32,867 nucleotides of DNA. It comes from Myxococcota bacterium. GTDB taxonomy: Bacteria; Myxococcota_A; UBA796; CAJQPC01. Both the position numbers and the translations under genes were made by a program. The stretch's first letter is position 1, and each line of letters begins with the position of its first letter. This document shows positions 4,359-26,117 of this stretch, one piece after another. The notes under the pieces were generated by a model, which had not been told where the DNA came from, searched no databases, and saw only the letters and a list, made by a program, of their open reading frames with translations. The stretch lies in assembly GCA_036229005.1 (NCBI GenBank), contig JAZAMN010000026.1, forward strand, positions 1 to 32,867, read 5' to 3'.

Positions 4359-4958
4359 ATGTTGCTGCCCGCCGACCAGCTTTCCAAGCGCCAGAACTAC
4401 TTCCTGATGACCTCGCTGGTGGTGCCGCGTCCCATCGCGTGGATCGGCACCGCGGGCCTGGGCGGTGGGGACGAAGGGGAGGACACCCACGACAACCTCG
4501 CCCCCTTCTCCTACTTCATGGGCGTCTCCTCGGACCCGCCCATCGTCGCCGTCTCCATCGCCCGCGCCCGGGGCGGCGCCCTCAAGGACACCCTGCGCAA
4601 CCTGCTCGCGACCCAGCGCTGCACGCTGTCGGTGGTCTCCCAAAAGCACCTGCTGCCCATGCACGCCACCGGCGGCAGCTTCCCGCCCGAGGTCGACGAG
4701 TTCACCGAGGCCGGCCTGGACAAGGAGCGCTGGGAGGGCCTGCCCGTGGTCGCCGACGCCCCCGCCGCGATGCTCTGCCAGCTCCACCGCGCCGAGGACC
4801 TGGGCAGCACCCACCTGGTGCTCCTGCGCGTGCTCGCCTACCGCGTGGACCCCGCTGGCTTCGACGCCGAGAACACCCGCATGCGGCCCGACTTCCTCAA
4901 GCCGGTCGGGAGGTTGGGCGGCTCCTATGCCCTCCTGGGACAGGAGATCACCCCTTGA
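4359..4958 (+). CDS. Flavin reductase family protein (DIM6/NTAB-like)
   Basis: VVPRPIAWI, NLAPFSYF, KDTLRN, PVGRLGG motifs; ATG 4359 preceded by GGGAG. Confidence 0.9.
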   Translation: MLLPADQLSKRQNYFLMTSLVVPRPIAWIGTAGLGGGDEGEDTHDNLAPFSYFMGVSSDPPIVAVSIARARGGALKDTLRNLLATQRCTLSVVSQKHLLPMHATGGSFPPEVDEFTEAGLDKERWEGLPVVADAPAAMLCQLHRAEDLGSTHLVLLRVLAYRVDPAGFDAENTRMRPDFLKPVGRLGGSYALLGQEITP

Positions 4959-5650: not shown

Positions 5651-5682
5651 GGTGTTATGAGCGGCCCCCTTTGGAGGCCCAC

Positions 5683-7383
5683 ATGGCGACCGTGGTCGAG
5701 ACCCTCACCAACATGCTGCAGCAGGCGGCCGACAGCCTGGGGATCCAGGCCCAGATCCCCGCGGTGAGCCCCACCAAGAGCGCGGACATGGGCGACTACC
5801 AGTCCAACTGCGCCTTCCGCCTGGGCAAGGCCCTGAAGACCTCGCCGGCGGGCGCTGCGCAGATGTTGGCGGACGCCCTCCAGGTCGGGGAGGTGATCCA
5901 CAAGGTCGAGGTGGCCGGCCCCGGCTTCATCAACCTCTTCCTGACGGAGGCCTACCTGGGCCAGGCCCTGGCCGAGCAGTGCGCCAGCCCGACCCTGAAC
6001 GTGCCCCAGACCCAGGGCACCGTGGTCATCGACTACTCCAGCCCCAACGTGGCCAAGCGCATGCACGTGGGGCACCTGCGCTCCACGGTCATCGGCGCCG
6101 CGCTGCACAAGCTCTACCAGGCCTGCGGCTGGACGGTCATCGCGGACAACCACATCGGCGACTGGGGCACCCAGTTCGGCAAGCTGATCGTGGCCTGGGA
6201 CAACTGGGTGGACGAGGCCGCCTTCGCGGAGGACCCCATCGGCGAGCTGCAGCGCATCTACGTGAAGTTCTCCCAGGAGGCCACCGACGAGATGCAGGAC
6301 CAGGCCCGCGAGGAGACCGCCAAGCTCCAGGCCGGCGATGAGCGGAACCGGGCGCTGTGGCAGCGCTTCATCGACGCCAGCATGGTGGAGTTCAACACCA
6401 TCTACGACCGCCTGGGCATCCGCTTCGACGTGACCTACGGCGAGTCGCACTACAACGACATGCTGCAGCCCATGGTCGACCAGCTCCTGGCCGACGGCAC
6501 CGCCGAGACCTCCGAGGGCGCGGTCATCATCCCCTTCACCAAGGCCGACGGGAAGGGTCTGGACAAGCAGCCCTTCCTCATCCGCAAGAAGGACGGCGCG
6601 GCGCTCTACGGCACGACCGACATGGCCACCGTGCGCTACCGGTTGGACACCTGGGCCCCCGAGCGCATGGTCTACGTGACCGACACCCGCCAGCAGCTCC
6701 ACTTCAAGCAGCTCTTCGCCGCCTGCAAGAAGGTGGGCTGGACCGACTCCAAGCTCATCCACGTGTGGTTCGGCCTGCTCTCCCTTCCCGAGGGCAACAT
6801 GTCGTCCCGGAAGGGCAACGTCATCCACCTCAAGACCCTGCTGGACACGGCGGTGGAGAAGGCGCGGGCCATCGTCGACAGCGCCTCCGCCGAGCTCCCC
6901 GAGGACCAGCGCGCCGCCATCGCCGAGGCCGTCGGTGTGGCCGCCGTGCGCTACGCCGACCTCTCCCAGAACCCCCAGGCCAACGTCGTCTTCGACTGGG
7001 ACAAGATGATGGCGATGGAGGGCAACACCGCGCCCTTCTTGATGTACGCCCACGCCCGGCTGCGCTCCATCCAGCGCAAGCTGGAGCTGGACACCACCGT
7101 CAAGGCCGCCGCTCCCACCAACGACGGCGAGCGCGCCCTGGCCGCCCTGCTGCTGCGCTACCCCGAGACGGTCCCCGCCGCCCTGGAGCAGAACCGGCCC
7201 ACCATCCTCTGCGACTACCTCTTCTCCGTCGCCCGGGCCGTGAACCGCTTCTACGCGGGCTCGCGGGTCAAGGGCGCCGAGGGTGCCGAGCTGCAGGCCC
7301 GGGTCGCTCTGGTCGCCGCCGCCGCGCAGACCCTGGAGGAGGGCTTGGCTATCCTCGGGGTGCCGGCCCTCCACCGCATGTAG
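5683..7383 (+). CDS. argS: Arginine--tRNA ligase
   Basis: GDYQSN, AGPGFIN, IDYSSPNVAKRMHVGHLRSTVIG (HIGH), NHIGDWGTQFG, MSSRKG, EGNTAPFLMYAHAR; GGAGG SD before ATG 5683. Confidence 0.98.
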   Translation: MATVVETLTNMLQQAADSLGIQAQIPAVSPTKSADMGDYQSNCAFRLGKALKTSPAGAAQMLADALQVGEVIHKVEVAGPGFINLFLTEAYLGQALAEQCASPTLNVPQTQGTVVIDYSSPNVAKRMHVGHLRSTVIGAALHKLYQACGWTVIADNHIGDWGTQFGKLIVAWDNWVDEAAFAEDPIGELQRIYVKFSQEATDEMQDQAREETAKLQAGDERNRALWQRFIDASMVEFNTIYDRLGIRFDVTYGESHYNDMLQPMVDQLLADGTAETSEGAVIIPFTKADGKGLDKQPFLIRKKDGAALYGTTDMATVRYRLDTWAPERMVYVTDTRQQLHFKQLFAACKKVGWTDSKLIHVWFGLLSLPEGNMSSRKGNVIHLKTLLDTAVEKARAIVDSASAELPEDQRAAIAEAVGVAAVRYADLSQNPQANVVFDWDKMMAMEGNTAPFLMYAHARLRSIQRKLELDTTVKAAAPTNDGERALAALLLRYPETVPAALEQNRPTILCDYLFSVARAVNRFYAGSRVKGAEGAELQARVALVAAAAQTLEEGLAILGVPALHRM

Positions 7384-7452
7384 CCTCTGGGCCCTGTCCT
7401 CTTGACAGGACAAGACCCACCGGCGAGGTCATTTCAAGGTAGATTGGAGCCG

Positions 7453-9132
7453 ATGCAGACGCCTGCCCAGCCCCAAGCCCAGATCCCGGAGCGCCTGGGG
7501 CGCTACCGCTTGGTGCGCTGCATCTCCGATGGCGGCATGGCGCGGGTCTACGAGGCCCGCCGCGAGTCCCTGGCCGGGGTGGCCCCCAAGGTCGCCCTCA
7601 AGGTCATCCTGCCCGAGCACGCCGAGGACGCGACCTTCCAGCAGCTCTTCGTGAACGAGGCGCGGATCGGGTCCCAGCTCCAGCACCAGAACCTGGTGCA
7701 GATCCAGGACTTCGACCGCGTGGGGCAGGTCTACTTCCTGGTCATGGAGTTCGTCGAGGGCATCACCCTGCGGCGCATCGCCAGCCTCTGCAGGCGCCAC
7801 GGCGTGCCCATCCCGATGGCGGTGATTGCGGAGCTCGGACGCCAGGTCTGCGAGGGGCTCAACGCCGCCCACATGGCCCGCTCCGAGGACGGCCAGCTCC
7901 TCCACCTGGTGCACCGGGACGTCAAGCCCTCCAACCTCATCCTGAACCCCCAGGGTGTGGTCAAGGTGCTGGACTTCGGCATCTCCAAGGCCGTCCAGGC
8001 CGCCGAACACCGCGGCACCGTCAAGGGCACCTGGGGCTACATGAGCCCGGAGCAGGCGCGGGCCAAGGACGACGTCTGGCACGCCGCCGATCAGTACGGG
8101 CTGGCCTGTGTGCTCTACGAGCTCGCGATGCTTCAGCCCTTGTTCACTGAGCGGGAGCCCAAGGACCTGGTCCGCCTGATGATGGCCGACGAGGGCGCCC
8201 GCCGGGCCGCTCGACTCACCGGTCCCCACGCCGGCCTGGGACGCGTCCTCATGCGCGCCCTGCAGCGGGACCCCCACGCCCGCTACCCAAGCTGCGGCTC
8301 CATGGGAGAGGAGCTCGCCGCCCTGATCTCCGAGCCCCTGCGCGCCCGCGAGCAGCTCCTGCGCTTCCACGCCACCGTCGAGGCTCTGGCCCGCTCCGAG
8401 GCCAACGGTGAGCCCCGCGGCTCGTCCACGCTCTCCCGCACCGGCGCCTCCAAGGGGACCATCGACCCCTACAGCCAGGGCCTGCCCGTGGGGATCGGCA
8501 ACGGCCAGCACCCCCACCAGAGCGTGGAGATCCCGCCCCAGGACCCGCCCCCCGCGCGCAGCGGCTGGAGCACCGGCGCCCTGGCCTGGATGGGCGTCGG
8601 CCTGGTTGTCGTGGCCTTCGTCTGCGTCAAGCTCTTCTGGCCCGAGGGGGTTGTGGAGCCGCCCGTGCCTGCGGGGCCCACCACCGAACAACAAGACCCC
8701 ACAGCCACCTCCCCGGATCCCTCCACCAGCGAGGTCACCCCGACCGAGCCCGACACCCCGGCGGAGCCCACCCCGGAGCCGGTGGTCGAGCCCCCCGTGG
8801 AGCCCGCGGTGGAGCCCGCGGAGCCCAAGCCCGTCGTCGTGAAGGACCCGCCCAAGCGCAAGGTCGTGGTCCCCGCCGAGCCCGCGGAGCCCAAGCCCGT
8901 GGGGGAGCCCGGCCTGCTCACGGTGTCCAGCCTGCCCAAGGCCCGCGTGTCCGTGGACGGCCGGGTGGTCGGGCAGACCCCCTTGTACCAGTACAGCCTG
9001 CCGGCGGGCAGCCACCGGGTCGTCCTCACCGCGGAAGATGGTCGAAGCAAGAGCTTCAACCTGGATCTTGGTGGGGGAGAGGAGGCCCGGAGGATCTGGC
9101 ACTTCGACCGCGAGGAGTGGGTCGAGCGCTGA
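7453..9132 (+). CDS. Membrane Hanks-type Ser/Thr protein kinase with Pro-rich linker and C-terminal PEGA domain
   Basis: GGMARVY, VALK, HRDVKPSN, DFG, GTWGYMSPE; TM helix LAWMGVGLVVVAFVCV; PEGA-like LTVSSLPKARVSVDG..VGQTPL. Confidence 0.93.
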   Translation: MQTPAQPQAQIPERLGRYRLVRCISDGGMARVYEARRESLAGVAPKVALKVILPEHAEDATFQQLFVNEARIGSQLQHQNLVQIQDFDRVGQVYFLVMEFVEGITLRRIASLCRRHGVPIPMAVIAELGRQVCEGLNAAHMARSEDGQLLHLVHRDVKPSNLILNPQGVVKVLDFGISKAVQAAEHRGTVKGTWGYMSPEQARAKDDVWHAADQYGLACVLYELAMLQPLFTEREPKDLVRLMMADEGARRAARLTGPHAGLGRVLMRALQRDPHARYPSCGSMGEELAALISEPLRAREQLLRFHATVEALARSEANGEPRGSSTLSRTGASKGTIDPYSQGLPVGIGNGQHPHQSVEIPPQDPPPARSGWSTGALAWMGVGLVVVAFVCVKLFWPEGVVEPPVPAGPTTEQQDPTATSPDPSTSEVTPTEPDTPAEPTPEPVVEPPVEPAVEPAEPKPVVVKDPPKRKVVVPAEPAEPKPVGEPGLLTVSSLPKARVSVDGRVVGQTPLYQYSLPAGSHRVVLTAEDGRSKSFNLDLGGGEEARRIWHFDREEWVER

Positions 9133-12985: not shown

Positions 12986-15241
12986 TCAGCGACGGGCCCG
13001 ACGCAGCAGCGCCTGCACCCGGAGCAGCAGCTCCTCGGGGTCGAAGGGCTTGGGCAGGTAGTCGTCGGCGCCGGCCATCAGGCCCTGCTTGACGTGTCGG
13101 GTCTCCCCGCGGGCGGAGAGCATCAGCACCGGGATGTCCGCGGTCTCGGGATCCGCCTTGAGCGCCGTGCAGACCTCGTAGCCGGTCTTGCGCGGCATCA
13201 TCACGTCGAGCACCAGCAGGTCCGGGCGGTGGGCCTGCACCTGTTCCAGCGCCTCCTGACCGTCCTCCGCCTGGAGGATCTCGCAGTCGTCCTCCAGGGT
13301 CAGGGCGACCAGGTCGCGGATCTCGGGGGCGTCGTCCACCACCAGCACCAGCGGGCGTCCCGTCTCGGGTGCGGTCGCGGGCCGGGCTTCCCTTGGCGGC
13401 TTGGGGCGAGGGGAGGGGAGGGGCGCGCTGACCTGTGTGTCCACCGCCTGCACGATGGGGCCCTCGCGCTCAGCCTGCACCCTCTCGGCATCGACGAGGG
13501 ACTGCCGCAGCGCCACGGGGTAGTCGCCGACCGGGACCACGCGGGCGACCTCCTCCAGGGTGGTCACGCCGGCGCGCAGCTTGTCCAGGGCGTCCTCGAA
13601 CAGAGTGCGCATGCCGGCGGCCCGCGCCAGCTCCCAGAGCTCTGCCTCGGTCACGCCGCCCTTCTGGACGGCTGCCGAGATGTCCGGGCCCAGCTCCAGC
13701 AGCTCGTAGAGGCCCACGCGGCCGCTGTAGCCCACGTACTGGCAGTGGGGGCACCCCGGGCCGGCGCGGCGCGCGGCGGGGCCCAGCTCCAGGGGCTCGA
13801 TGTCCAGGCGCAGCCACTCCTCGGGGGTGTGGTCCGCGGGGAGGGAGCACCAGGTGCAGACGCGGCGCACCAGGCGCTGGCTGACGACGCCCGCCATGGC
13901 CGCTCCCAGCAGGTAGCCGGGGACCTCCAGGTCCAGCATGCGGGTGACCGCCGCGACCGCGTTGGAGGTGTGCAGGGTGGACAGCACCAGGTGGCCGGTG
14001 CCCGAGGCGTCCACGGCGGCCGCTGCGGTCTCGGCGTCGCGCACCTCGCCGATGACGATGACGTTGGGGTCCTGCCGCAGCAGCGCCCGCACCGAGTTGG
14101 CGAAGTGCACGCCCGCCTTGTCGTTGATCTGCACCTGCGTGATGCCGGGCAGGGTGTACTCGATGGGGTCCTCGAGGGTCGCGACGCTCAGGGACTCCCG
14201 GTTCAGGCGGTGGATCGAGGCGTAGAGGGTGGTGCTCTTGCCGCTCCCTGTGGGCCCCACGACCAGCACGAGGCCCCGCGGGCGCGAGAGCAGGCGGTAC
14301 CAGAGCTTGAGCTGCGCGTCGGACCAGCCGAGCTGGCTCAGCGACAGGGTGACCATCTCGGGGTCGAGCACGCGGATGACGATGTTCTCGCCGAACTGGG
14401 CGGGCAGGATGGAGACCCGCAGCTCGATGGTGCGGCCCCCCAGGCGCGCGCGGGCCTTGCCGTCCTGGGCCCTGCGGCGCTCGGCCACGTTCAGGTCGGA
14501 GATCACCTTGACGCGGCCGGCGATCAACGGGCCCGACCACTGCGGCAGGCGCACCATCTCGCGCAGCAGGCCGTCGATGCGGTAGCGCACGCGCAGGTCG
14601 TCGGCCCCGGGCTCCAGGTGGATGTCGGAGGCGCCGCGCTCGATGGCGTTGATCAGCAGCAGGTCCACCAGGTCCACCGCCGCGCGCCCGTCGCCCTGGT
14701 GGATCTGGCGCTGGATCTTGTCGGCGTCGAGCTGCAGCCAGTTGGGGGCCACGGTGAGCTCGCGCAGGTGGGGCTGGACCCCGTCGAGCAGGCGGGCCGC
14801 CACGGCCTCGACCGAGAAGTGGCGCTGGATGGCCTGGCTGATGCGCGTCGGCTCGGCGATCAGGGGGACCACCGGGCCGTTGAACGCGAACTCCAGGTCC
14901 CGGATGGCGCCGGGGTCCTGGGGGTTGGCCATGGCCACGCGCGGGCGCCCCCGCTCATCGCGGGTCAGCGGGATCAGCTTGCTGCGGACGGCCAGGCTGC
15001 GGTTCAGGCGCCACACCAGCTTGGGGTCGACCTCGGCCTCCAGGGGGTCCACCCGCTCGATGCCGAGCTGCTCGGCCAGGGCCTCGGTGACCTCCTCCTC
15101 GCTGACGGCGCCCAGGCGCACCAGGGCCATGCCCAGCTTGACCTCGCTGTCGACCTCCTGTATCACCAGGGCCGCGTCCAGCAGCTCGCGGGTGAGGTTG
15201 GTGCGCTGCAGGAGCAGTTCGCCCAGGCGTGCGGTGCTCAT
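12986..15241 (-). CDS. GspE/PilB-family secretion ATPase with N-terminal MshEN motif and C-terminal receiver domain
   Basis: RLGELLL...Q/KLG...Q tandem; ASDIHLEP; Walker A GPTGSGKS; LRQDPNVIVIGEVRD; His box GHLVLSTLH; CxxC/CxxC; REC VLVVDD...DLLVLDVMMP...LSA...KPF. Confidence 0.93.
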   Translation of the reverse strand: MSTARLGELLLQRTNLTRELLDAALVIQEVDSEVKLGMALVRLGAVSEEEVTEALAEQLGIERVDPLEAEVDPKLVWRLNRSLAVRSKLIPLTRDERGRPRVAMANPQDPGAIRDLEFAFNGPVVPLIAEPTRISQAIQRHFSVEAVAARLLDGVQPHLRELTVAPNWLQLDADKIQRQIHQGDGRAAVDLVDLLLINAIERGASDIHLEPGADDLRVRYRIDGLLREMVRLPQWSGPLIAGRVKVISDLNVAERRRAQDGKARARLGGRTIELRVSILPAQFGENIVIRVLDPEMVTLSLSQLGWSDAQLKLWYRLLSRPRGLVLVVGPTGSGKSTTLYASIHRLNRESLSVATLEDPIEYTLPGITQVQINDKAGVHFANSVRALLRQDPNVIVIGEVRDAETAAAAVDASGTGHLVLSTLHTSNAVAAVTRMLDLEVPGYLLGAAMAGVVSQRLVRRVCTWCSLPADHTPEEWLRLDIEPLELGPAARRAGPGCPHCQYVGYSGRVGLYELLELGPDISAAVQKGGVTEAELWELARAAGMRTLFEDALDKLRAGVTTLEEVARVVPVGDYPVALRQSLVDAERVQAEREGPIVQAVDTQVSAPLPSPRPKPPREARPATAPETGRPLVLVVDDAPEIRDLVALTLEDDCEILQAEDGQEALEQVQAHRPDLLVLDVMMPRKTGYEVCTALKADPETADIPVLMLSARGETRHVKQGLMAGADDYLPKPFDPEELLLRVQALLRRARR

Positions 15242-16641
15242 TCGGTCTCCACGGCCGCCAGGGGCAGCCTCAGGGTGAAGGTGCTGCCCTTTCCGACGGC
15301 GGAGCGGACCCCCATGCGGCCGCCCATCGCCTGAGCGAGCTGGCGGCAGATGTAGAGCCCCAGGCCGGCCCCGCCGCTGCGGCGACGGTCCCCGTGCTCG
15401 ACCTGGTAGAACTTCTCGAAGAGGCGGTCCAGGGCGGGCGCCGGGATGCCGCGTCCGGTGTCGCGGACCGACAGGAGCAGCTCGCCGTCGTCCACCTCGG
15501 CGTGGACCTCGACGCTGCCGCCCGCTGGCGTGAACTTGATGGCGTTGCGCACCAGGTTGCCCAGGATCTGCTGCAGGCGGAAGGGGTCGGCGTGGACGCG
15601 CTGGCCCGCCGGGAGCCGGTCCGAACCGCTCAGGCTGAGGCCCTTCTCGGCGGCGGTGCCCTGGAAGTTGGCCACCACCTCGTCGATGGCCGCGCGCACC
15701 CCCAGCGCCTGTGGCGTCAGGGTCAGGTGGCCGCCCTCCAGGCGCGTGGCGTCCAGCAGGTCCTGCACCATGCGGTAGAGCACCTCGGCCTGGTCCTTGC
15801 TGCGGGTGAGCAGCTTGACCTGCTTGTCGTTCAGGGGCCCGCCCTTGCCCATGAGCAGCAGCCGGATGTAGCCCTGGACCGAGGTCAGGGGCGTCTTGAG
15901 CTCGTGGGTCACCACGCTCAAGAACTCGCGCTGCAGGGCCTCGACCCGCATCCGGTCCGTGATGTCCGAGAGCACCAGCACGTGGCCCTGACTGCGCAGC
16001 GGCTTGAGGGCGACCAGGTAGTGGCGCTGCGCCCCCGTGGCGTCCTGGGTGTCCACGCTGCGGCGGGTCGTCACCGGACCGAAGTCCGCTGGATCCGCCA
16101 GGCCATCCACCCGGTGTCCTCGCTGGAGCTGCGCGTCGCAGAGGAGTCGGTAGGCCTCCGCGGCCCCGGGGTTGTAGTCGACCACCTGCTGACGCTCATC
16201 CAGCAGGATGACCCCATTGTCCAGCGCGTTGAGCATGGTCTTGACGACCTGGGCCTGGTCCTCGGCCTTGTCCAGGGACTCGACCAGGTGGGTGCGCATG
16301 CTCTCCAGGGCCTCGCCCAGCGCTTGAAGCTCAACGCCCCCGCGCGCCTGAGGAAAGGGCTGCGTCAGGTCCCCGTTCGCGATGTCCTGGGCCCGCCCCG
16401 CGAGCTCGAACAAGGGCTGGGAGAGCAGGCTGCGCACGCGGTAGGCCGCGAACAGGGTCGCCCCCGTCACCCCAAGCACCCAGACCAGCAGCAGCGAGGA
16501 CTCCAGGTACAGGTCCTGGGGTTGCGCCGCCGGGGCGGTCAAGAAGGCGATCACGGCGGCCAGCAGCACGATGCCGTTGAGGGCCGAGAGCAGCAGCACG
16601 ACGCTGATCTGGTAGCGCAGGGTCATGGGGGAGCGTGCCAT
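15238..16641 (-). CDS. Membrane sensor histidine kinase (2 TM, HAMP, PAS-like, HisKA, HATPase)
   Basis: H-box VTHELKTPLTS, N-box NLVRNAIKFT, G1 DTGRGI, F-box LFEKF, G2 GAGLGL. Start moved from the ORF-track 17406 to 16641 (alternatives 16650, 16626) because the upstream part overlaps a plus-strand gene. Confidence 0.92.
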   Translation of the reverse strand: MARSPMTLRYQISVVLLLSALNGIVLLAAVIAFLTAPAAQPQDLYLESSLLLVWVLGVTGATLFAAYRVRSLLSQPLFELAGRAQDIANGDLTQPFPQARGGVELQALGEALESMRTHLVESLDKAEDQAQVVKTMLNALDNGVILLDERQQVVDYNPGAAEAYRLLCDAQLQRGHRVDGLADPADFGPVTTRRSVDTQDATGAQRHYLVALKPLRSQGHVLVLSDITDRMRVEALQREFLSVVTHELKTPLTSVQGYIRLLLMGKGGPLNDKQVKLLTRSKDQAEVLYRMVQDLLDATRLEGGHLTLTPQALGVRAAIDEVVANFQGTAAEKGLSLSGSDRLPAGQRVHADPFRLQQILGNLVRNAIKFTPAGGSVEVHAEVDDGELLLSVRDTGRGIPAPALDRLFEKFYQVEHGDRRRSGGAGLGLYICRQLAQAMGGRMGVRSAVGKGSTFTLRLPLAAVETE

Positions 16642-16759
16642 CGCCGGCATGGTACGCCATCCCGCTGTCGCCAGGACCGTGACAAGGCCCTGACCCCACG
16701 GAGGCCCCCGCCTCGCTACCTTGCGCCCCGAGAACCCCGGACCCCGCTTGAGGCCCTCG

Positions 16760-19303
16760 ATGCTCTGGCTGCTCGCCACCGCCGCCCTCGCCGCCGACCC
16801 CATCCTCCTGACCCAGACCCCCGTGGTCGGAGACGGGGAGCAGACCGCCGTCGTGCTGGTGCAGGTCCCCGGCCTGCAGGAGAGCGACCGGGTGCGCCTG
16901 AGCCCCAGCCAGGGAGAGGTGCTCGAGGTCTCCCGCCAGGGCGAACTGTTGGCCCTCACGCTGCGCCCGCCCACGGCCCGCCGCCAGGGCGACGACATGC
17001 CCATCGAGCTCAAGGTGCGCGGCTCCATGAAGCTCAACGCCGAGCTCGCCGTGCCCCTCGCGCAGCCCACCCGCGGCAGCCTCAACCTCCAGGCCGAGTC
17101 CACCACCTGGAAGCCCGGGGACCGCGCCCGCCGCGAGATCACCATCACCCCCGGCGGCACCCACAGCCTGCCCGTGGGCGCCCGCGAGATCGCGCTGCGG
17201 GCCAGCCAGGGCAGCATCAGCGCCGCCACCCCAAACGACGACGGCACCTGGACCGCCACCTGGACCCCGCCCTCCCGCGGCAACGGCGAGTCCGAGGTCC
17301 TCATCGTCGCCACCGATCTCTCCGCCCCGGAGACCCTGGTCGGCATGCTTCGCGTTGGGGTCCAAGGTTCCGAGGACGGCAAGGCCCCTGTGCTCGTCGC
17401 CCCCACAGCCCAGCGGGTCCAGGCCGGTCAGAGCCTCCGCGTCTGGGTCGCAGCGCCCCAGTCCCAGGCCAGCGTCGGGGAGCTCTCCCTGGAGAGTGAG
17501 GGGGTTGGCTTTCGCAGCGCCGTCCTCACCGCCCCGGACTCGGTGGGCACCTGGAGCCTCAAGGTCAGCGGTGACGCAGACGAGGACACCCTGAGCCTGC
17601 GCGTGGACGCCCCCGCCATGCCCGTGCAGCTCCGCACCGACCCGCCGCTGCTCGGCGCGGACACCCGCTCGCTCAGCGCCATCGCGACCGTCTCCGGTGG
17701 GGACCGCACGGCAGCCTCCAGCCTGCGCTGGAGCGTCGAGGGCGCCAAGGTCAACGGCAGCCCCAAGGTCTCCAGCGGCCAGGCCACCCAGGGCGTCCGC
17801 GTGGCCTCCAACTCCAAGCAGGTGCTGATCACGACGGCCATGAGGCGCTACGACGCTGGGTTGCCCACCGCCCGGCTGGTCGCGTGGAGCCCCAACCAGG
17901 CGCTGCCCAACGACGGCAAGAGCGAGGGCACACTGGTCGTGGTCGCGGTGGACGCCCTGGGCAACCCCGTCGCGAACGTGGACCTCAAGCTGCGGGCCCC
18001 CATCGGGGACGCCCGGATCAAGCCCACCGCGCGCACCGACAGCCGGGGAATCGCCCTGGTCAGCGTCGGCGCGGGTCTCCAGCAGGGGCCCGTCCGAGTG
18101 GTGGCCGAGACCGCCCAGGGCCTGGAGACCGAGCTCATCTTCTGGCAGGGGGCGGGCGCGCCGAGCCTCCCCGAGGCCGGCGGGAAGGACCAGCAGGACG
18201 CCAGCGCGCTGGTGCGGGCGCAGGTCCCGGTGCTGATGCTCCCGCGCATCGAGGGCAGCGTCGGCAAGCCCGCCACGGTGTTGGTCCAGGCCAACCCCCA
18301 GTACACGACCCCCGGCGCCGCCGTGCTGGTGTCCCTGCGGATCCAGGACGACCAGGGCCTGCCGGTGGTGGGGGTCAAGCCCCGCATCGAGCCCTCCGTG
18401 GGCAGCGTGGGCCCGGTCACGGACAACGGCGACGGCTCCTACCTGGTGCCGGTGCAGCTCCCGCCCGGCGTCGACGGCCCCCTCAGCCTGAGCGTCAGCG
18501 CCGAGAGTGCCCAGGCCAGCCTCAACGTGCCCACCCTCCAGTCCCTCGGTGGCCTCGCCGCCCTCAACCCGGACGGCAGCACCTCCACCCCCGAGCCTGA
18601 GGGCCGCCCGGAGCGCACACCCCGCGGACCTGGGGGAGCGCCCATGGCCACCCTGCGCCTCCACGCCGTGGACCAGAGCTACGCCGCTCAGCAGAGCAGC
18701 TCGGGCACGGCCGGCGTCCCGCTGGGGGCCTCCTTCAACAACAGCTTCCCCCTGGGCGCACCCGGCCTCGCCCTGCAGGCCTCCGTCTTCCCAACCAAGG
18801 GCAGCGTCGGCGTGGACTTCCGAAGCCAGTTGGCGGTCAACCGCATCTCCCTGGGTGCCGGCCCCACGCAGGAGGTCGCCTGGGACACCCTCTACCCGAC
18901 CATGCTCGGCGTCCGGTACCGCACCCTGGATGGCCCCGTGCGGGTGGGAGGCGGCGCCTGGCTCCACGCCCACGACGCCCCGGTGTTCGTCTACGGCAGC
19001 GATCTCAAGAGCTCGGCCGTCATCCAGCAGGAGCGCCTCCTCGCCGCGCGCCTTGGAGCCGTGCTCGAGGTGGACACCTCCATGGTGGGCCTCGAGCTGC
19101 TCGTCGCCGAGAGCTTCGGCCCGCTCCCCCAGGCCACCCACGGCAGCCTCTCGCTGGACCTCAAGGTGCTCCCGGGCCCGGCCTTCCTGAGCCTGGGCGG
19201 CGCCGCAGACCTCCAGCACACCCAGCTTGACATCGACGGCGAAGCGGTCACCCTGCGCTCCCAGGCCTACGCGGCCCGCGTGGGCGTCGGCGCCAGCTTC
19301 TGA
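16760..19303 (+). CDS. Large secreted/outer-membrane protein with invasin-like Ig (Big_1) repeats and probable C-terminal beta-barrel
   Basis: MLWLLATAALA signal; NDDGTWTATWT, DNGDGSYLV, ALPNDGKSEGTLVVVAVDALGNPV; terminal beta-signal-like ARVGVGASF. Confidence 0.7.
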   Translation: MLWLLATAALAADPILLTQTPVVGDGEQTAVVLVQVPGLQESDRVRLSPSQGEVLEVSRQGELLALTLRPPTARRQGDDMPIELKVRGSMKLNAELAVPLAQPTRGSLNLQAESTTWKPGDRARREITITPGGTHSLPVGAREIALRASQGSISAATPNDDGTWTATWTPPSRGNGESEVLIVATDLSAPETLVGMLRVGVQGSEDGKAPVLVAPTAQRVQAGQSLRVWVAAPQSQASVGELSLESEGVGFRSAVLTAPDSVGTWSLKVSGDADEDTLSLRVDAPAMPVQLRTDPPLLGADTRSLSAIATVSGGDRTAASSLRWSVEGAKVNGSPKVSSGQATQGVRVASNSKQVLITTAMRRYDAGLPTARLVAWSPNQALPNDGKSEGTLVVVAVDALGNPVANVDLKLRAPIGDARIKPTARTDSRGIALVSVGAGLQQGPVRVVAETAQGLETELIFWQGAGAPSLPEAGGKDQQDASALVRAQVPVLMLPRIEGSVGKPATVLVQANPQYTTPGAAVLVSLRIQDDQGLPVVGVKPRIEPSVGSVGPVTDNGDGSYLVPVQLPPGVDGPLSLSVSAESAQASLNVPTLQSLGGLAALNPDGSTSTPEPEGRPERTPRGPGGAPMATLRLHAVDQSYAAQQSSSGTAGVPLGASFNNSFPLGAPGLALQASVFPTKGSVGVDFRSQLAVNRISLGAGPTQEVAWDTLYPTMLGVRYRTLDGPVRVGGGAWLHAHDAPVFVYGSDLKSSAVIQQERLLAARLGAVLEVDTSMVGLELLVAESFGPLPQATHGSLSLDLKVLPGPAFLSLGGAADLQHTQLDIDGEAVTLRSQAYAARVGVGASF

Positions 19304-19314
19304 TGGAGTCCCTC

Positions 19315-20763
19315 ATGCACAGCACCCGCAGCCTGCTCGCCCTCGGCTCCCTGGTCGGCCTCGCCTCCCTGGGCCTGACCGCCTGCGCGCCCACGCCGGT
19401 GACCTTCGAGTGCCTGGACGACGACCCCCTCTGCTCGCTGGCCGAGAACCTGGAGACGCTGCCCCCCGCCGTGTCCGTGGACATCCAGGCCATCGCCCTC
19501 TACCAGACCGCCGAGAAGGTGCTGATGGAGGACGGCGAGGCGGTCGATGACGGCCTGTCTGTCGCCGAGGGCCGGGACGCTCTGCTGCGCGTCTTCCTGA
19601 GCCCCGCGGACACCTACGAGGAGCGGGATCTGGCTGTCCGCGCCCTGATTTACCAGGGCGAGGACCTGGTGGACGCCGTCATGGTCAAGGAGGCCTTCTT
19701 GGGAGGAGGGGACTGGGACGATCTGGGCTCAACCTTCAACCTGGAGATCCCTGGTCGCAGCATCGGATCGGACTTTGGTCTCGTCGTCGAGGTGCTGGAG
19801 TCCCAGGGTGAAGTCAGCTTCCCCGGCATCCAGGGCCTGAACACCTGGCCCGAGGAGGGCTGGGCCGCTGTGGAGACCACCCGGACCGGTCCGCTGCGCA
19901 TCCTCATGGTCCCCATCCAGTACGACGCCGACGGCTCCGGGCGGCTCCCCAACACCTCGGACGAGGAGATGGACCGCTTCGCCGCCGACTTCTACGCGCA
20001 CTACCCGGCCACCGAGGTCGAGATCGAGGTCACCGAGCCCTACTCGACCGCAAACGGCATCCGAAACGGGGGCTTCTCGGGCCTGCTGAACGAGGTCACC
20101 GCCCAGCGTGACGCCCTCGGCGCGGACCCGGACCAGTACGTGTACGGCATCTTCGACCCGGGCTCCGATCCCACCGGCGGCACCGCTGGGCTCTGCTGGG
20201 TGGGCGGCGTGATGGTCTGCATCGGGCTCACCGGTCAGACCGGCACCGCCATCCACGAGGTGGGGCACGCGCACGGCCGCCTGCACTCCCCGGGCTGCGG
20301 CGCGGGGGACCCCGATCCCGCCTACCCGGAGTCCGACGGCACGCTGGGGACCCGTGCATACAACAGCTACCTGGGGACCCTCTACGGCAGCACCGAGGCC
20401 TACGACTTCATGAGCTACTGCGGGCCCACCTTCACCAGCGCCCACACCTGGGAGTCGCTGGTCACCCGCGTGAAGGGCATCAACGACACTCTGGCCAGCT
20501 ACGGCCAGGAGTCCATCGAGTGGCAGATGCTGTTCGTGGACGCTGCTGGGAACAGTGAGCTCGGCGGCCGGAGCTGGTACGCCCAGGCGCCCGCCGGGCA
20601 GGCCGTACACGTCCTGCTCCTGGACGCTGACGGCGTGGTGCTCTCCCGGGCGGACGCGGTCCTCAACGAGCAGGACCACGCCCTGGGCAGCATGCTGCGG
20701 GTGCCGGCCTGGGTGGACCTGGACGGCGTGGAGCGTGTGCAGGTCGTCTCCCTCCAGCAGTAG
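19315..20763 (+). CDS. Metzincin zinc metalloprotease lipoprotein (M66/M12-like); start 19303 or 19315
   Basis: Lipobox GLTAC; HEVGHAHGRLH (HExxHxxGxxH); Met-turn YDFMSYC. Confidence 0.85.
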   Translation: MHSTRSLLALGSLVGLASLGLTACAPTPVTFECLDDDPLCSLAENLETLPPAVSVDIQAIALYQTAEKVLMEDGEAVDDGLSVAEGRDALLRVFLSPADTYEERDLAVRALIYQGEDLVDAVMVKEAFLGGGDWDDLGSTFNLEIPGRSIGSDFGLVVEVLESQGEVSFPGIQGLNTWPEEGWAAVETTRTGPLRILMVPIQYDADGSGRLPNTSDEEMDRFAADFYAHYPATEVEIEVTEPYSTANGIRNGGFSGLLNEVTAQRDALGADPDQYVYGIFDPGSDPTGGTAGLCWVGGVMVCIGLTGQTGTAIHEVGHAHGRLHSPGCGAGDPDPAYPESDGTLGTRAYNSYLGTLYGSTEAYDFMSYCGPTFTSAHTWESLVTRVKGINDTLASYGQESIEWQMLFVDAAGNSELGGRSWYAQAPAGQAVHVLLLDADGVVLSRADAVLNEQDHALGSMLRVPAWVDLDGVERVQVVSLQQ

Positions 20764-20797: not shown

Positions 20798-22228
20798 TCA
20801 GCGCAGCAGCAGGATGCCCAGCGCTGCAGCCCAACCCGCCACCGCGAGCACCGCGGTGACCACCAGCGGCAACCGAGAGGGGGGCTGAGGCAGCGTGTCC
20901 TCGCTTGGGACGGGATCGACGAGGGGTTCGGGCTCCTGGGGGGTGATGGAGGTGCGCTCCCCGAGCTGGCGAGCCAGGCGGCGCAGCTCCTCCCCCAAGG
21001 CGGGGTCGGGCTGGATCAGCAGCATCGCGCTGGCCCGGGCGGAGGGGATGCGGCCCCTGGCGAGCTCGTAGCGAACCATGGTCGCGACGGCGGCGTCGTG
21101 CTTGTGCCGAGCGGCCACGTTCTCGGGATCGTCCTCCAGCACAGCCTGGTAGCCAAAGCGGCAGGCGCCGAAGAGCTGGTGGACCTCCAGGTCGGTGGCC
21201 TGGGGATCGGTGCTCAGGCGCTGGAACTTCTCGTGACGCTGCTCGGCCTCGTGCAGGACCGTCTTGACCCGTACGGCGTTGGTGGCCTCCATCAGCGCCC
21301 GGTAGAACGCGCCGCCGTCTTCGGGGCGCCGGTAGGGGTCGGTGTGGAGGGCGCTCATGCAGAGCTCTTCGAGCTCCTTGGGCACGCCGCGGGGGAGGGG
21401 ATTCACCTCGCCGACGCGGGCGTTCCGGAGCGCCGTGCCGTTGCCCATGTGGGGCGGTCGGCCCCCCAGGATCTCGTAGAGGCAGGCGCCGAGCATGTAC
21501 ACATCCGTCGCCGCCCGCTGCGCGAGGTGGTTGGCGTGGGCGAGCTCGGGGGGCATGTATGCGGGGGTGCCCACGGGGCCGTCGCTCGCGGGCGCTGGCA
21601 GGCGGGTGGCCAGGCCCCAGTCCATCAGCCACACCTCGCCGTAGTCGCCCAGCAGGACGTTGTCGGGCTTGACGTCGCGGTGGAGGATGCCCCGGTCGTG
21701 GGCCAGCGCGAGCACCTGGCTGATGCGGCCCAGGATGTACAGGGAGTCCCGCAGTTCAGCCCACGCCAGGCCGATCTCATCCCGCTGGCGCAGGTCATCG
21801 CCCCAGGTGCGCCCCTGGACGCGACGCATCACCAGCAGAGGCATGCCGCGGCTGTCGGCCCCCAGGTCGTACACCGGGATGACGCTGGGGTGCTCCAGCT
21901 CGGCGGCGATCAGGGCCTCCTGGCGCAGCGCCTTGACCCCGCTCTGCTTGAGGGGGCGCTTGACGGCGACCTCTCGCGCCAGGGACTGCTGAACGCCCAG
22001 CAGCACCTCGCCCATGCCACCCCGCCCCAACGGAGGCCCGAGCGAGAGCCCGACGAGCTCGGGGAGGGGGCCTCGATGCTGAGCGCGCGCGCGCTCCACG
22101 GTGGGCCCATCGAGGGTGTAGGTGTTCTCCCCCCCCGAGGACAGACCCATGGACGACTCGACCTCCAGGCCGAGCTGCGCCAGACGAGCCAGCGCTTCCC
22201 GCTGACTGCGCTTGTCCTTCGTGCTCAC
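20798..22228 (-). CDS. Hanks-type Ser/Thr protein kinase with C-terminal membrane anchor
   Basis: LGRGGMGEV, VAVK, HRDVKPDN, DWG, GTPAYMPPE, DVYMLG; C-terminal hydrophobic helix. Confidence 0.92.
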   Translation of the reverse strand: MSTKDKRSQREALARLAQLGLEVESSMGLSSGGENTYTLDGPTVERARAQHRGPLPELVGLSLGPPLGRGGMGEVLLGVQQSLAREVAVKRPLKQSGVKALRQEALIAAELEHPSVIPVYDLGADSRGMPLLVMRRVQGRTWGDDLRQRDEIGLAWAELRDSLYILGRISQVLALAHDRGILHRDVKPDNVLLGDYGEVWLMDWGLATRLPAPASDGPVGTPAYMPPELAHANHLAQRAATDVYMLGACLYEILGGRPPHMGNGTALRNARVGEVNPLPRGVPKELEELCMSALHTDPYRRPEDGGAFYRALMEATNAVRVKTVLHEAEQRHEKFQRLSTDPQATDLEVHQLFGACRFGYQAVLEDDPENVAARHKHDAAVATMVRYELARGRIPSARASAMLLIQPDPALGEELRRLARQLGERTSITPQEPEPLVDPVPSEDTLPQPPSRLPLVVTAVLAVAGWAAALGILLLR

Positions 22229-22313
22229 GGTCAGAGTCTACCCCGTCTGGGGCCACCAGACCTTGCCCGAGTGGCCCTGTAAGATAGGATGGGGCGCCTC
22301 CCAGGGAGACCCC

Positions 22314-23177
22314 ATGCCGTCCGAGCGTGAACTTGACGAGCTCGTCGAGGCCATCGCAGCCCGTGTCCAGCAGCGTCTTGAGCAGGCTCAGCAGCAGCAG
22401 AGCGTGCCGCCTCTCCAGTCCGTACGGGGGAGCTGGCAGGATCACAGCGCTCAGAGCCTGGAGCAGCGCGGAATCGCGCGCATCGGCAGCGACGGGCAGC
22501 CCCCGGCGGGTGGGCAGGGCCTGAACCGCTACATCGATCACACCAACCTCAAGCCGACCGCGACCCGGGCGGACATCCTCAAGACCTGTCAGGAGGCGCG
22601 GGAGTACAGCTTCGCGTCGGTCTGCGTGAACAGCGTCTGGATCGCCATGGTCGCGCGGGAGCTCCGGGGCACGTCGGTGATGCCCATCTGTGTCGTCGGC
22701 TTCCCCCTCGGGGCGGCCATGACGGAGGCCAAGGCGGCGGAGACCCGGGCGGCGGTGGCCGCAGGCGCCGAAGAGATCGACATGGTCATCAACATCGGCT
22801 CCCTCAAGTCGGGCGACCATGACCTGGTGCTGCGCGATATCGAGGCGGTCGTCCGCGCCGCCCAGGGCCGGCCGGTCAAGGTCATCCTGGAGACCTCGAT
22901 GCTGGAGCGGGACGAGAAGATCGCCGGCTGCGCGCTTTCCAAGGCGGGTGGCGCTGCCTTCGTCAAGACCTCCACCGGCTTCGGTGGGGGGGGCGCCACG
23001 GTCGACGACATCGCCCTGATGCGGCAAGTGGTCGGCCCGGAGATGGGCGTCAAGGCCTCGGGCGGGGTCCGGACCGCACAGGACGCTGAGAATATGATCA
23101 AGGCGGGGGCCACCCGGCTCGGTGCCTCGGCCAGCGTCGCCATCGTCACCGGCGGCACCGGCAAGGGCAGCTACTGA
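22314..23177 (+). CDS. deoC: 2-deoxyribose-5-phosphate aldolase with ~68-aa N-terminal extension
   Basis: YIDHTNLKP, SVCVN, VVGFPLG, EIDMVINIG, KVILET, FVKTSTGF (Schiff-base Lys), VKASGGVR, GATRLGAS; GGGAG SD before ATG 22314. Confidence 0.96.
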   Translation: MPSERELDELVEAIAARVQQRLEQAQQQQSVPPLQSVRGSWQDHSAQSLEQRGIARIGSDGQPPAGGQGLNRYIDHTNLKPTATRADILKTCQEAREYSFASVCVNSVWIAMVARELRGTSVMPICVVGFPLGAAMTEAKAAETRAAVAAGAEEIDMVINIGSLKSGDHDLVLRDIEAVVRAAQGRPVKVILETSMLERDEKIAGCALSKAGGAAFVKTSTGFGGGGATVDDIALMRQVVGPEMGVKASGGVRTAQDAENMIKAGATRLGASASVAIVTGGTGKGSY

Positions 23178-24388
23178 TGCACATCCAGACCTTCCTTGAA
23201 GAGAAGCGCGAGGGCCAAGAGCACAGCGCCGCGGACATCCAAGCGTTCATCAAGGGGGTCGTCGACGGGAGCATCACCCGCGCCCAGGCCGCCGCCTGGC
23301 TGGCCTTCGTCAACGTCCGGGGCATGAGCGACCGGGAGACCACGACGCTCACCCAGGCCATGACCGACTCCGGCCGCGTGCTGGCCTGGCCCGGCCTCTC
23401 CGGCCCCTTCGTGGACAAGCACAGCACCGGCGGGGTGGGGGACAAGATCTCCCTCATCCTGGCGCCGGTCTGGGCCGCGATGGGCATGCGTGTCCCCATG
23501 ATCAGCGGCCGCGGCCTGGGCATCACCGGCGGCACCCTCGACAAGCTCGAAGCGATCGACGGATACCGCACCACCCTCAGCCCCGAAGAGCTGCGCCTCG
23601 TCCTGGCCGAGGCCGGTTGCTTCATCAACGGGCAGACCGGGGAGCTCGCGCCGGCAGATCGCTTCCTGTACGCGCTGAGGGATGAGACAGCCACCGTCCC
23701 CTCCATCCCCCTCATCACCGCCTCCATCCTCTCCAAGAAGCTGGCCGAGGGCCTGGACCGCCTGGTCCTCGACGTCAAGTGCGGCTCAGGCGCCTTCATG
23801 CGCACCCGCACCAGCGCCCGCAAGCTCGCTGACAGCCTCGTGCGGGTAGGGCGGTCGGCTGGCCTCCAGGTCGAGTCGGTGATCTCCGACATGTCCCAGC
23901 CCCTTGGCCTCGCCGTCGGAAACGCGGTCGAGGTCCAGGAGTCCATCGACGTCCTCAAGGGCGGCGGGCCAGACGATGTCCGCAAGCTCGTCCTCAGCCT
24001 CTCCGGCGACCCCGAGGCCGCCAAGGTGGTCATCCGGGATGGCAGCGCCTACGAGCGCTTCGAGCGCATGGTCCACGCCCAGGGCGGCGACCTGGCCAAG
24101 CCGCTGCTGGGTGGCAAGGTCCAGGAGGAGGTCGTCTTGGCTGGTCGCAGTGGCCGCGTGGAGCGCTGTGATGCCCTCGGTATCGGGCAGGCCGCCTTCC
24201 TGCTGGGAGCAGGTCGGGTCAAGGCCAGCGACGATGTCCACCCTGGCGTCGGTGTCTTGCTCACCGCCAAGCGGGGCGACATGGTCGAAGCCGGCCAGCC
24301 CCTGGCCCGTCTGCTCCACGCAGAGGGGCACGGCCTCCATGACGCCCTCGATGAGGTGCGCTCCGCCATCGAGATCAAGGAGATCTGA
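23177..24388 (+). CDS. pdp: Pyrimidine-nucleoside/thymidine phosphorylase
   Basis: DKHSTGGVGDK, PMISGRGLGITGGTLDKLE, YALRD, SILSKK, LDVKCGSGAFM; start overlaps the deoC stop. Confidence 0.95.
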   Translation: MHIQTFLEEKREGQEHSAADIQAFIKGVVDGSITRAQAAAWLAFVNVRGMSDRETTTLTQAMTDSGRVLAWPGLSGPFVDKHSTGGVGDKISLILAPVWAAMGMRVPMISGRGLGITGGTLDKLEAIDGYRTTLSPEELRLVLAEAGCFINGQTGELAPADRFLYALRDETATVPSIPLITASILSKKLAEGLDRLVLDVKCGSGAFMRTRTSARKLADSLVRVGRSAGLQVESVISDMSQPLGLAVGNAVEVQESIDVLKGGGPDDVRKLVLSLSGDPEAAKVVIRDGSAYERFERMVHAQGGDLAKPLLGGKVQEEVVLAGRSGRVERCDALGIGQAAFLLGAGRVKASDDVHPGVGVLLTAKRGDMVEAGQPLARLLHAEGHGLHDALDEVRSAIEIKEI

Positions 24389-25858
24389 GTGCTGACCCTG
24401 ACCTGGCTGACCTCCACCGTGTTGGCCGCCCCCGGCAGCGCGCCCGTCGAGAGCGGCAGCTCCTTCCTGGAGCGCTCCGTCAGCTTCATCGGCATCTTCG
24501 TGATGGTCGGCATCGCCTGGCTGATGTCCGAGAACCGCAAGGCCATCAAGTGGCGCCCGGTGCTGTGGGGCATCGGCCTGCAGCTCGTGTTCGCGCTGCT
24601 CGTGCTCAGCCCCTTCCTGCAGGACTTCTTCTTCAACGTGGTCGACGGCGGCGTCAAGCAGCTCCTCTCCTTCGCGGAGGCCGGCGCCAACTTCGTCTTC
24701 CAGTCCGTGCAGCCCCACCAGATCCTGGACGGCGGCGGCGACGCCGAGTTCGTGGTCGGGCGCATCAGCCCGCCGGTCAAGACCTTCGCGTTCTGGATCC
24801 TCCCCACCATCGTCTTCTTCTCGTCCCTGATGAGCGTGCTGTACCACCTCGGCGTCATGCAGGTGCTCATCCGCGGTATCTCCTGGGTCATGCAGCGCAC
24901 CATGGGGACCTCCGGCTCCGAGTCCCTGGCCGCCGCCTCCAACATCTTCGTCGGCCAGACCGAGGCCCCCCTCGTCATCAAGCCCTACGTCGACAGCATG
25001 ACCCGCTCGGAGCTGCACGCCCTGATGACCGGTGGCTTTGCGACCGTCGCGGGTGGCGTCCTGGCCGCATACGTCGGCTTCCTCGGGGGCATCGAGGGCA
25101 TCGCCGGACACCTCGTCGCGGCCTCCATCATGTCCGCGCCCGCCGCGCTCGCCATCTCCAAGGTCGTCGTCCCCGAGACCCAGGAATCGCCCACCGCCGG
25201 CGAGATCAAGCACCACGTCGACAAGGCCGCCGGGAACGTCCTCGAGGCCGCAGCCAATGGAGCCGCCGAGGGCGTCAAGCTCGCCATCAACGTCGCCGCC
25301 ATGCTCATCGCCTTCGTGGGCCTGGTCACCATGTTCGACTGGAGCCTCACCCTCATCCCCGTGGCCTTCACCGACACCGGCGCCGCCTTTGGTTGGGCCC
25401 TGGGCGCCGATGAGGCCGCCGCCATCGCCGAAGCTGGAGAGACCGTCGGGCGCATGAAGGTCGTCGGCGCAGAGCCCCTGACCCTCTCCCGCCTGCTCGG
25501 CTGGCTCTTCTTCCCCATCGCCCTGGCCATGGGCGTTCCCTGGCACGAGGCGGGCCTCGTCGGCACTCTGCTCGGCGAGAAGATCGTCCTCACCGAGTTC
25601 CTCGCCTACATCCACCTCGGCGAGCTCACCAACCCCGAGAACCCCCAGCTCTCCCAGCGCTCCGCCATCATCGCCAGCTACGCCCTCTGTGGCTTCGCGA
25701 ACTTCGCGTCCATCGGCATCCAGCTCGGTGGTATCGGCGGTCTGATGAAGCGGGAGGATGGGATGAGGGAGCTGTCGTCCCTGGCCCTGCGGGCCATGGC
25801 CGCGGGATCGCTCGCAGCCTTCATGACCGGGACGATCGCCGGAATCCTGTTGGGCTGA
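24389..25858 (+). CDS. nupC: Concentrative nucleoside transporter (CNT/NupC family)
   Basis: SENRKAIKWR, FAFWILPTIVFFSSL, NIFVGQTEAP, GGFATVAGG, NVAAMLIAF, YALCGFANFASIGIQLGG. Confidence 0.93.
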   Translation: MLTLTWLTSTVLAAPGSAPVESGSSFLERSVSFIGIFVMVGIAWLMSENRKAIKWRPVLWGIGLQLVFALLVLSPFLQDFFFNVVDGGVKQLLSFAEAGANFVFQSVQPHQILDGGGDAEFVVGRISPPVKTFAFWILPTIVFFSSLMSVLYHLGVMQVLIRGISWVMQRTMGTSGSESLAAASNIFVGQTEAPLVIKPYVDSMTRSELHALMTGGFATVAGGVLAAYVGFLGGIEGIAGHLVAASIMSAPAALAISKVVVPETQESPTAGEIKHHVDKAAGNVLEAAANGAAEGVKLAINVAAMLIAFVGLVTMFDWSLTLIPVAFTDTGAAFGWALGADEAAAIAEAGETVGRMKVVGAEPLTLSRLLGWLFFPIALAMGVPWHEAGLVGTLLGEKIVLTEFLAYIHLGELTNPENPQLSQRSAIIASYALCGFANFASIGIQLGGIGGLMKREDGMRELSSLALRAMAAGSLAAFMTGTIAGILLG

Positions 25859-25892: not shown

Positions 25893-26117
25893 TCAGAAGC
25901 CCTTGCGCCCCTCGTTCGCGTCCATCACGAGCTGCGGCATCATGAAGGCGTCCACCAGGGTGCCGATGCCGCAGAGTCCGCCGGTGCACAGCCAGAGCAG
26001 CCCGCTGCCGATCCGGCCCACGTAGAGCCGGTGCAGCCCCGCCACGCCAAACCAACTGGCCACCCACAGGATGTAGGCGATCGACGCCTGGCGCTTTTGA
26101 ACGACGAGCTCGGACAC
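25893..26117 (-). CDS. TM2 (NINE) domain small membrane protein
   Basis: AYILW...GVAGLHRLYVGRIGSGLLWLCTGG..GIG..VD; GGAGG SD. Confidence 0.88.
   Translation of the reverse strand: MSELVVQKRQASIAYILWVASWFGVAGLHRLYVGRIGSGLLWLCTGGLCGIGTLVDAFMMPQLVMDANEGRKGF

Follow-up and report, generated by a model that had tools for sequence, protein, structure and literature searches.

Canonical deoC-deoB-pdp/nupC operons serve nucleoside catabolism, and the Haliangium (HO) shell is the chief model for the structure and engineering of bacterial microcompartments (BMCs). Sutter et al. (2021; PMC8217296; cited, like the other papers below, for its accessible portions) called the native function of the HO organelle enigmatic. 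They also described in some HO genomes a distal pfam01791 enzyme with an extension resembling an encapsulation peptide (EP), which was considered a possible HO cargo, and nucleic-acid catabolism was suggested. For the sugar-phosphate-utilising (SPU) BMCs defined by Axen (2014), Dwyer, Sutter and Kerfeld (2024; PMC11585597) reported that all deoxyribose-5-phosphate aldolases (DERAs) have a 70-residue extension consisting of a helix and low-confidence strands, that the SPU DERA is active, and that the extension renders it insoluble. A bioRxiv preprint on an SPU-type system of Hodarchaeales (PMC12747264) proposes nucleoside phosphorolysis and a mutase step, followed by encapsulated DERA and aldehyde dehydrogenase (AldDH), and links the system to Myxococcota. 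Here we analyse a 32,867-nucleotide stretch of a Myxococcota bacterium (the window; contig JAZAMN010000026.1 of assembly GCA_036229005.1), in which deoC, encoding an N-terminally extended DeoC, lies in a nucleoside operon. In our labels G, C, L, f and g stand for genome, contig, locus, family and genus; G000 is the genome studied, and deoC is on its contig C26.

This DeoC is quite probably cargo of an HO type II microcompartment whose genes lie on other contigs, and its N-terminal extension would direct it there. The gene (22314-23177, + strand; 287 amino acids from ATG 22314) is the sole deoC found in the 6.4-Mb, 94% complete assembly, and the closest named relatives of its product, 66-83% identical, are in records of metagenome-assembled genomes with mixed titles, including Myxococcota and Deltaproteobacteria; the lineage is probably an uncultured one of Myxococcota. 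Its stop codon overlaps the start of pdp (TGATG; pdp at 23177-24388, +), which encodes a 403-residue pyrimidine-nucleoside/thymidine phosphorylase without a terminal tag, scoring above the thresholds of the thymidine/pyrimidine-nucleoside phosphorylase models. The GTG start of nupC (24389-25858, +; 489 amino acids) directly abuts the pdp stop, and this member of the concentrative nucleoside transporter (CNT) family has 3/3 CNT Pfam domains, with a TIGR00804 score of 383, below the cut-off of 442. A first-pass annotation of the window had described deoC as tightly coupled to pdp and a CNT transporter, and these overlapping and abutting genes bear it out.

PF00936 and PF03319 have no match on C26, and the shell genes lie on contigs C31 and C6. 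The operon on C31 runs in the order Tdp, H, P, AldDH, Ts, P, P, and a second Tdp stands alone on C6. This complement of one BMC-H, three BMC-T and three BMC-P agrees with the published HO type II description, as does the layout, in which only one BMC-Tdp, a satellite, lies outside the main locus. The best natural PDB matches of BMC-H and the main Tdp are HO-5815 and HO-5816, respectively; Ts is nearer to PduT than to PDB entry 5dih, which we take to be the HO BMC-T1 structure. AldDH of the shell operon matches PRK15398 above cut-off and starts with a helix (hydrophobic moment 0.54), also present in relatives, which is a predicted EP. No signature enzyme was found within the C31 shell operon. 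Judged by its genes, G000 holds a complete HO type II shell set with aldehyde dehydrogenase; the first-pass annotation had proposed a search for shell genes and an EP-bearing aldehyde dehydrogenase, and shell genes and an AldDH with an N-terminal helix turned up on contigs other than that of deoC.

The association between extension and shell genes was seen at two scales: rather than occurring independently of shells, the tag tracks them, with few exceptions. A DeoC match was obtained in 112 of the 151 genomes of the order, and BMC-P in 105. When the extension was counted as present if the DeoC match starts no later than query residue 22 (92 order genomes), BMC-P was found in 89/92 genomes with the extension, and the extension in 3/46 genomes without BMC-P. 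The three exceptions are G022 (96% complete), G028 (78%) and G060 (83%), and the first two keep BMC-T genes. Sixteen shell-bearing order genomes fall outside the 92, comprising six without a DeoC match, four with late-starting matches (in one of these, G039, the extension is on another contig) and six of family f3, whose shell loci contain long DeoC frames, verified in one case as an RpiB-DeoC fusion. For the phylum, the helix was counted by a regular expression because a hidden Markov model of the helix alone scored unevenly, and among genomes hand-picked from the 150 listed strongest DeoC matches the motif occurs in 37/40 shell-bearing (out of 129 such genomes) versus 1/20 without BMC-P, at a chance rate of 2.9%. 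By eye, a near-motif is visible in two of the three shell-bearing misses, and DeoC of the third, G259, is unextended. G395 (87% complete) is the only shell-less genome with the motif, and it retains a Tdp. The helix is present in BMC-associated DeoC and absent from others, with exceptions that include G022, G028, G060, G259 and G395. An apparently unrelated helical DeoC extension of 45-65 residues, often beside nupC, occurs in shell-less genomes (L097, L100, L102-L104, L106, L107, L109, L112, L042 and L043).

Tag and shell have also been lost together. The tagged proteins form one group (SH-aLRT 87) in a quick tree of 85 DeoC barrels, and shell-less, helix-less DeoC is nested in this clade at least twice, namely in the f50 trio and in G227, which fall in a 99% subclade beside shell-bearing genomes of their own families; G322 is a further such case, on a long branch. 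In the shell-less f50 trio the helix is gone and the Cys-rich residues are kept. In genus g18, where BMC-P is found in 0/4 genomes, a DeoC of another clade occupies the same slot of deoC-pdp-nupC-gammaCA-smc (gammaCA, gamma-carbonic anhydrase), and G013 keeps one lone BMC-domain match. A third type of DeoC, likewise untagged, stands beside pdp-nupC in four shell-less f3 genomes. Since pdp-nupC persists at this site with untagged DeoC in shell-less relatives, the operon is ancestral and shell-independent rather than a dedicated satellite; the tag, in contrast, follows the shell. The first-pass annotation had called the operon a possible BMC satellite locus, and this has to be withdrawn, because the operon has no shell gene and pdp-nupC is kept in shell-less relatives; satellite BMC loci as defined by Sutter et al. 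(2021; PMC8217296) are distal loci with shell genes, alone or with enzymes. Co-loss here is a plain tally of a few events among kin. The presence of nupC was set aside as uninformative, being found in 134/151 order genomes including 40/46 of f3.

Two further arrangements are of note. In G145 pdp-nupC-gammaCA-smc, which is the synteny of the window, directly adjoins an SPU-type shell locus that includes an RpiB-DeoC fusion, so that a shell locus and the nucleoside operon have possibly been caught here in a joined state; positions 1-9000 of this locus (L047) contain the RpiB-DeoC fusion, TPI-like, BMC-T and PduS-like genes, divergent from pdp-nupC-gammaCA-smc. Tagged or Cys-extended deoC also stands beside pdp in L191, L207, L183, L184 and L240, with deoB in two of them, and the records of these loci (Eisenbacteria, Calditrichaceae, Deferribacteres) extend the operon link beyond Myxococcota. 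A Kofleriaceae record (L187) likewise has a tagged deoC followed by deoB and pdp.

Counted from ATG 22314, which has a Shine-Dalgarno-like GGAG (22305-22308, +) 5 nt upstream, 72 residues precede YIDHT, close to the 68 or so given by the first-pass annotation, and TIGR00126 matches above cut-off from residue 70. The extension could be untranslated, its start having been mis-called, or its helix could be due to chance; the hydrophobic moment is not significant alone, and proteomic or RNA evidence for the extension was not found in our search. Initiation near YIDHT is not available because residues 32-74 offer no canonical start, and within the first 75 codons GTG at residue 31 is the only alternative one. 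Moreover, five residues inside the extension are invariant in 33 relatives, and the helix ranks first of 5625 frames in the scan described below, which makes an artefact of this kind extremely improbable.

Residues 4-23 (22323-22382; this and all segments of DeoC below on the + strand) form the predicted encapsulation helix, homologous to the helix of DeoC encoded within shell loci. AlphaFold gives a helix for residues 4-29 with block pLDDT of 85-95. An arc of 120 degrees takes in L7, L10, V11, I14, V18 and L22, so the apolar residues listed by the first-pass annotation do share one face; R21 is also on this face, and the amphipathicity claimed there is not beyond chance. The hydrophobic moment (0.36-0.43; shuffle p 0.16-0.28) is no better than that of shuffles, and it was dropped as proof of a tag. 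The case for the helix lies in conservation and not in the moment: a profile built from 65 helices of other genomes was run on 5625 coding-like frames of G000, and the DeoC helix ranks 1/5625 with 39.9 bits versus 20.0 bits for the next frame. This rank 2 frame was rejected as further cargo, being an internal helix behind a false start, and Pdp ranks 3252/5625.

Residues 24-30 (22383-22403), a short Gln-rich spacer gapped in most relatives, are the only variable part of the extension. The poorly conserved Gln/Pro/Ser linker of the first-pass annotation does not extend beyond this run, because a conserved module follows at residues 31-61, in which G39, W41, D43, R56 and G58 are invariant in 33/33 aligned order relatives. 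The module begins with a clade-specific segment, residues 31-43 (22404-22442; invariant G39, W41 and D43), and continues with residues 44-61 (22443-22496), a helix and GAxRxG element resembling the C-terminal helix-strand of DeoC. It is followed by the class I aldolase barrel (22533-23174), in which D156, K218 and K247 are invariant (38/38 aligned relatives); from motif position these would be equivalent to the catalytic residues of Escherichia coli DeoC. The DeoC model superposes on solved DERAs with 0.6-1.3 Å root-mean-square deviation among the top ranks, and with the catalytic Asp, Lys and Lys conserved the protein is a predicted deoxyribose-5-phosphate aldolase.

The extension profile aligns with the extensions of five DeoC proteins encoded in shell loci (probability 93.9%, E 1.5e-7) and with 34 mostly cysteine-bearing extensions of other lineages (probability 98.4%). 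At the position of the Gly-Trp-Asp segment of this clade, most other tagged DeoC proteins have a cluster of three or four cysteines. This cluster, between helix and barrel, is seen in most tagged DeoC outside the order (L074-L077, L121-L153, L180-L221), and families f8 and f9 share with this clade a Gly-Trp motif in its place; the cysteine-type extensions have weak Fer4 matches only (3/34, best E 0.014). Among 301 phylum genomes the full clade-type module occurs in 24 including G000, in families f1, f2, f5, f6 and f7 only, and four further genomes have helix-only matches. The extension profile found nothing under E 0.1 among PDB sequences, and an ESM Atlas search gave one unnamed cluster at 0.75. 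In hhalign comparisons the last element of the extension matches the C-terminal helix-strand of the barrel with probability 31% (P 5e-4) for this clade, and the cysteine-type extensions match the DeoC core with probability 90.9% (E 1.1e-6). This suggests that the last helix-strand of the extension is an old internal duplication of DeoC's own C-terminal helix-strand, which is not mentioned in the examined text portions and searchable supplements of Dwyer et al. (2024).

Such a duplication would also fit an extension that serves as an oligomerisation or regulatory module, its helix-strand packing on the barrel, with shell co-occurrence arising from shared ancestry. Conservation in the middle of the extension exceeds that of a linker, this part resembles the last helix-strand of the barrel, tagged DeoC proteins are one clade, and other long DeoC extensions exist in shell-less genomes. 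However, the loss in the f50 trio is specific to the helix, an unlinked aldolase (aldolase A, below) loses its terminal helix likewise, and residues 31-61 are modelled at low confidence, with residues 34-58 largely unordered in two AlphaFold monomer models. We therefore regard a purely structural role as very unlikely.

Two class II aldolases are as good cargo candidates as DeoC. Aldolase A (G000:C20:152865-153674, − strand; L010 1243-2055) has a C-terminal cysteine motif and helix. Both were seen by eye in 20/20 of the best shell-bearing loci and the helix was absent in 6/6 shell-less ones; it is also absent in shell-bearing G029, and G146 is ambiguous. Aldolase A is a likely further unlinked cargo enzyme. 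Aldolase B (G000:C31:247218-247994, − strand; L011) ends in a short helix. It directly follows the BMC-P genes in 8/11 fetched main loci, which were chosen mostly for that proximity, and the shell operons of relatives usually end with it; in this genus it is 8-13 kb away (13 kb in G000). The genome-wide helix scan did not recover the aldolase tails, hence it is insensitive to other peptide types. A gene for the MtnA isomerase is also present.

Our data on the class II enzymes raise the alternative that they are the working signature enzymes of the organelle, the tag being a relic of an SPU5-like ancestor and DeoC mostly cytosolic. They would then act on the phosphate of a deoxy sugar, for example fuculose-1-phosphate or 5-deoxyribulose-1-phosphate. 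The position of aldolase B, the pattern of the aldolase A helix, the presence of MtnA and the lack of deoB in this genus and in most f5 and f6 genomes are in line with it. However, the DeoC helix is strongly conserved phylum-wide and disappears together with shells, a pattern not required of a relic, and DeoC shares the SPU5-like main loci L180-L182 with a class II aldolase, so the two roles are not exclusive. We consider this alternative unlikely. With somewhat more room for it, and still only tentatively, the HO-type organelle might be a multi-aldolase hub fed from dispersed housekeeping operons. One AldDH would there receive aldehydes made from nucleoside-derived sugars by two tagged class II aldolases and by a tagged DeoC that the ancestral nucleoside operon had contributed. 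The MtnA/class II route could then cover sugars bypassing the missing DeoB, and the extension would combine a targeting helix with a duplicated helix-strand cross-linking DeoC into the core.

According to the reading that we prefer, with DeoC as shell cargo, NupC would import (deoxy)nucleosides, cytosolic Pdp would release deoxyribose-1-phosphate, and a mutase (DeoB in many relatives) would make deoxyribose-5-phosphate in the cytosol. Deoxyribose-5-phosphate would cross the shell and be cleaved inside it by tagged DeoC, and AldDH would capture the acetaldehyde as acetyl-CoA within the shell, whose lumen probably also contains one or two tagged class II aldolases. The individual reactions are standard chemistry for these enzyme families, and the whole route from NupC through Pdp, mutase and encapsulated DeoC to AldDH has, in our judgement, a good chance of being right. 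Genes, homology, co-occurrence and co-loss are direct observations here, and expression, encapsulation, substrate and flux are deduced. The first-pass annotation had placed aldol cleavage inside a shell encoded elsewhere; the shell set and helix-bearing AldDH are indeed present and the tag co-occurs and is co-lost with shells, which is consistent with encapsulation. Its direct passage from phosphorolysis to aldol cleavage was incomplete, because a phosphopentomutase step is needed between Pdp and DeoC and deoB was not found.

Several points weigh against DeoC as encapsulated cargo on this route. deoB occurs in 59/151 order genomes, where its listed coordinates follow deoC wherever compared, and was not found in G000, three congeners, 20/22 f5 and 16/16 f6 genomes; the one phosphohexomutase match of G000 is GlmM-like. 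RpiB was not found in the 94%-complete genome, nor any iron-containing alcohol dehydrogenase (Fe-ADH) above cut-off. Since the fusion of acetate kinase (AckA) to a PduL-type phosphotransacylase (PTAC) is not tied to shells either, none of these enzymes accounts for recycling of NAD+ and CoA in the lumen. The moment of the DeoC helix carries no weight by itself, and the AldDH helix ranks only 183/5625 on the DeoC profile (−2.3 bits). G022 keeps the tag, and BMC-P and BMC-type AldDH were not found there; G259 has shells and an untagged DeoC. About nine shell-less genomes have, by eye, a different long helical DeoC extension, hence a DeoC extension as such is not diagnostic. Finally, the sampled genomes are kin and not independent, those of the phylum were picked by hand, and the regular expression was written after the sequences had been seen.

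A substitute mutase for DeoB is plausible by homology, as a second phosphohexomutase family member is found in two congeners and an extra one in deoB-less G006 and G070. The AckA-PTAC fusion of G000 (597 amino acids; C4, L154 1417-3210, − strand) was tried as a BMC part and rejected, being in 4/4 genomes of shell-less g18 and 27/46 of f3 but 2/33 of f7; the PTAC domain occurs in 67/151 order genomes, mostly in frames of about 600 amino acids, independent of shells.

Neighbouring genes of the window include a Ser/Thr protein kinase gene (20798-22228, −), divergent from deoC with the starts at most about 170 bp apart. A 74-residue small membrane protein, TM2-like by eye (25893-26117, −), is encoded between nupC and a gamma-carbonic-anhydrase-like gene. 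Further upstream, a PilB/GspE-type ATPase with an MshEN domain and a C-terminal response-regulator receiver (12986-15241, −) adjoins a histidine kinase (15238-17406). Two open reading frames have no Pfam match, one of 962 amino acids (16331-19219, −) and one of 486 amino acids (19303-20763, +), the latter lipoprotein-like with a zinc-protease-like HExxH motif. A scan for promoters and terminators found none.

Our results can help to understand what the HO-type organelle does, as a tagged DeoC in a nucleoside operon supports the published guess that it digests the sugar of scavenged DNA. With a substrate class named (pyrimidine deoxynucleosides), together with importer, phosphorylase and tagged aldolase, which are retained and lost along with the shell, a one-line guess becomes testable. 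In addition, typing BMCs by locus misses cargo left in housekeeping operons. In a search of mostly non-subscription literature, with picture-only locus diagrams and some supplements outside it, no report tied an HO-type DeoC to a pdp-nupC operon or tested co-loss, and the seven supplements of Sutter et al. (2021; PMC8217296) do not mention phosphorylase or nucleoside. DeoC was treated by the first-pass annotation as established HO cargo, which overstates a published speculation (Sutter et al. 2021; PMC8217296, in its accessible portions).

The locus shares genes and chemistry with the canonical operons of nucleoside catabolism, and its four-gene form occurs in relatives (e.g. L078, L057, L084). 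In contrast, DeoC of the Firmicute examples starts a few residues before the barrel and is untagged, and here deoB was not found. Features in common with the published HO type II (PMC8217296) are an AldDH with an N-terminal tag, encoded together with shell genes in the main locus, a BMC-Tdp as satellite, a set of one H, three P, two Tdp and one Ts, and PF00596 aldolases with possible C-terminal peptides. Unlike in that description, DeoC is here placed in a deoC-(deoB)-pdp-nupC operon and its co-loss with shells is examined, two class II aldolases have tails, and Ts is closer to PduT. SPU5 is the closest SPU subtype (PMC11585597), having an extended DERA, an AldDH partner, no RpiB and a class II aldolase with C-terminal EP, and the DeoC extension is homologous to those of the SPU5-like loci L180-L182. 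The SPU DERA is in the shell locus, whereas this one is on another contig in an operon for transport and phosphorolysis, with a Gly-Trp-Asp segment replacing the cysteine cluster; and the RpiB-family partner general in SPU BMCs was not found here, as in SPU5. The shell operon of Hodarchaeales (PMC12747264) includes DERA, with upstream enzymes deduced from genome content, while here they share an operon with DERA. A distal tagged DeoC as putative HO cargo is already in print (Sutter et al. 2021; PMC8217296), and new here are the operon link, the evidence from co-loss and the anatomy of the extension module.

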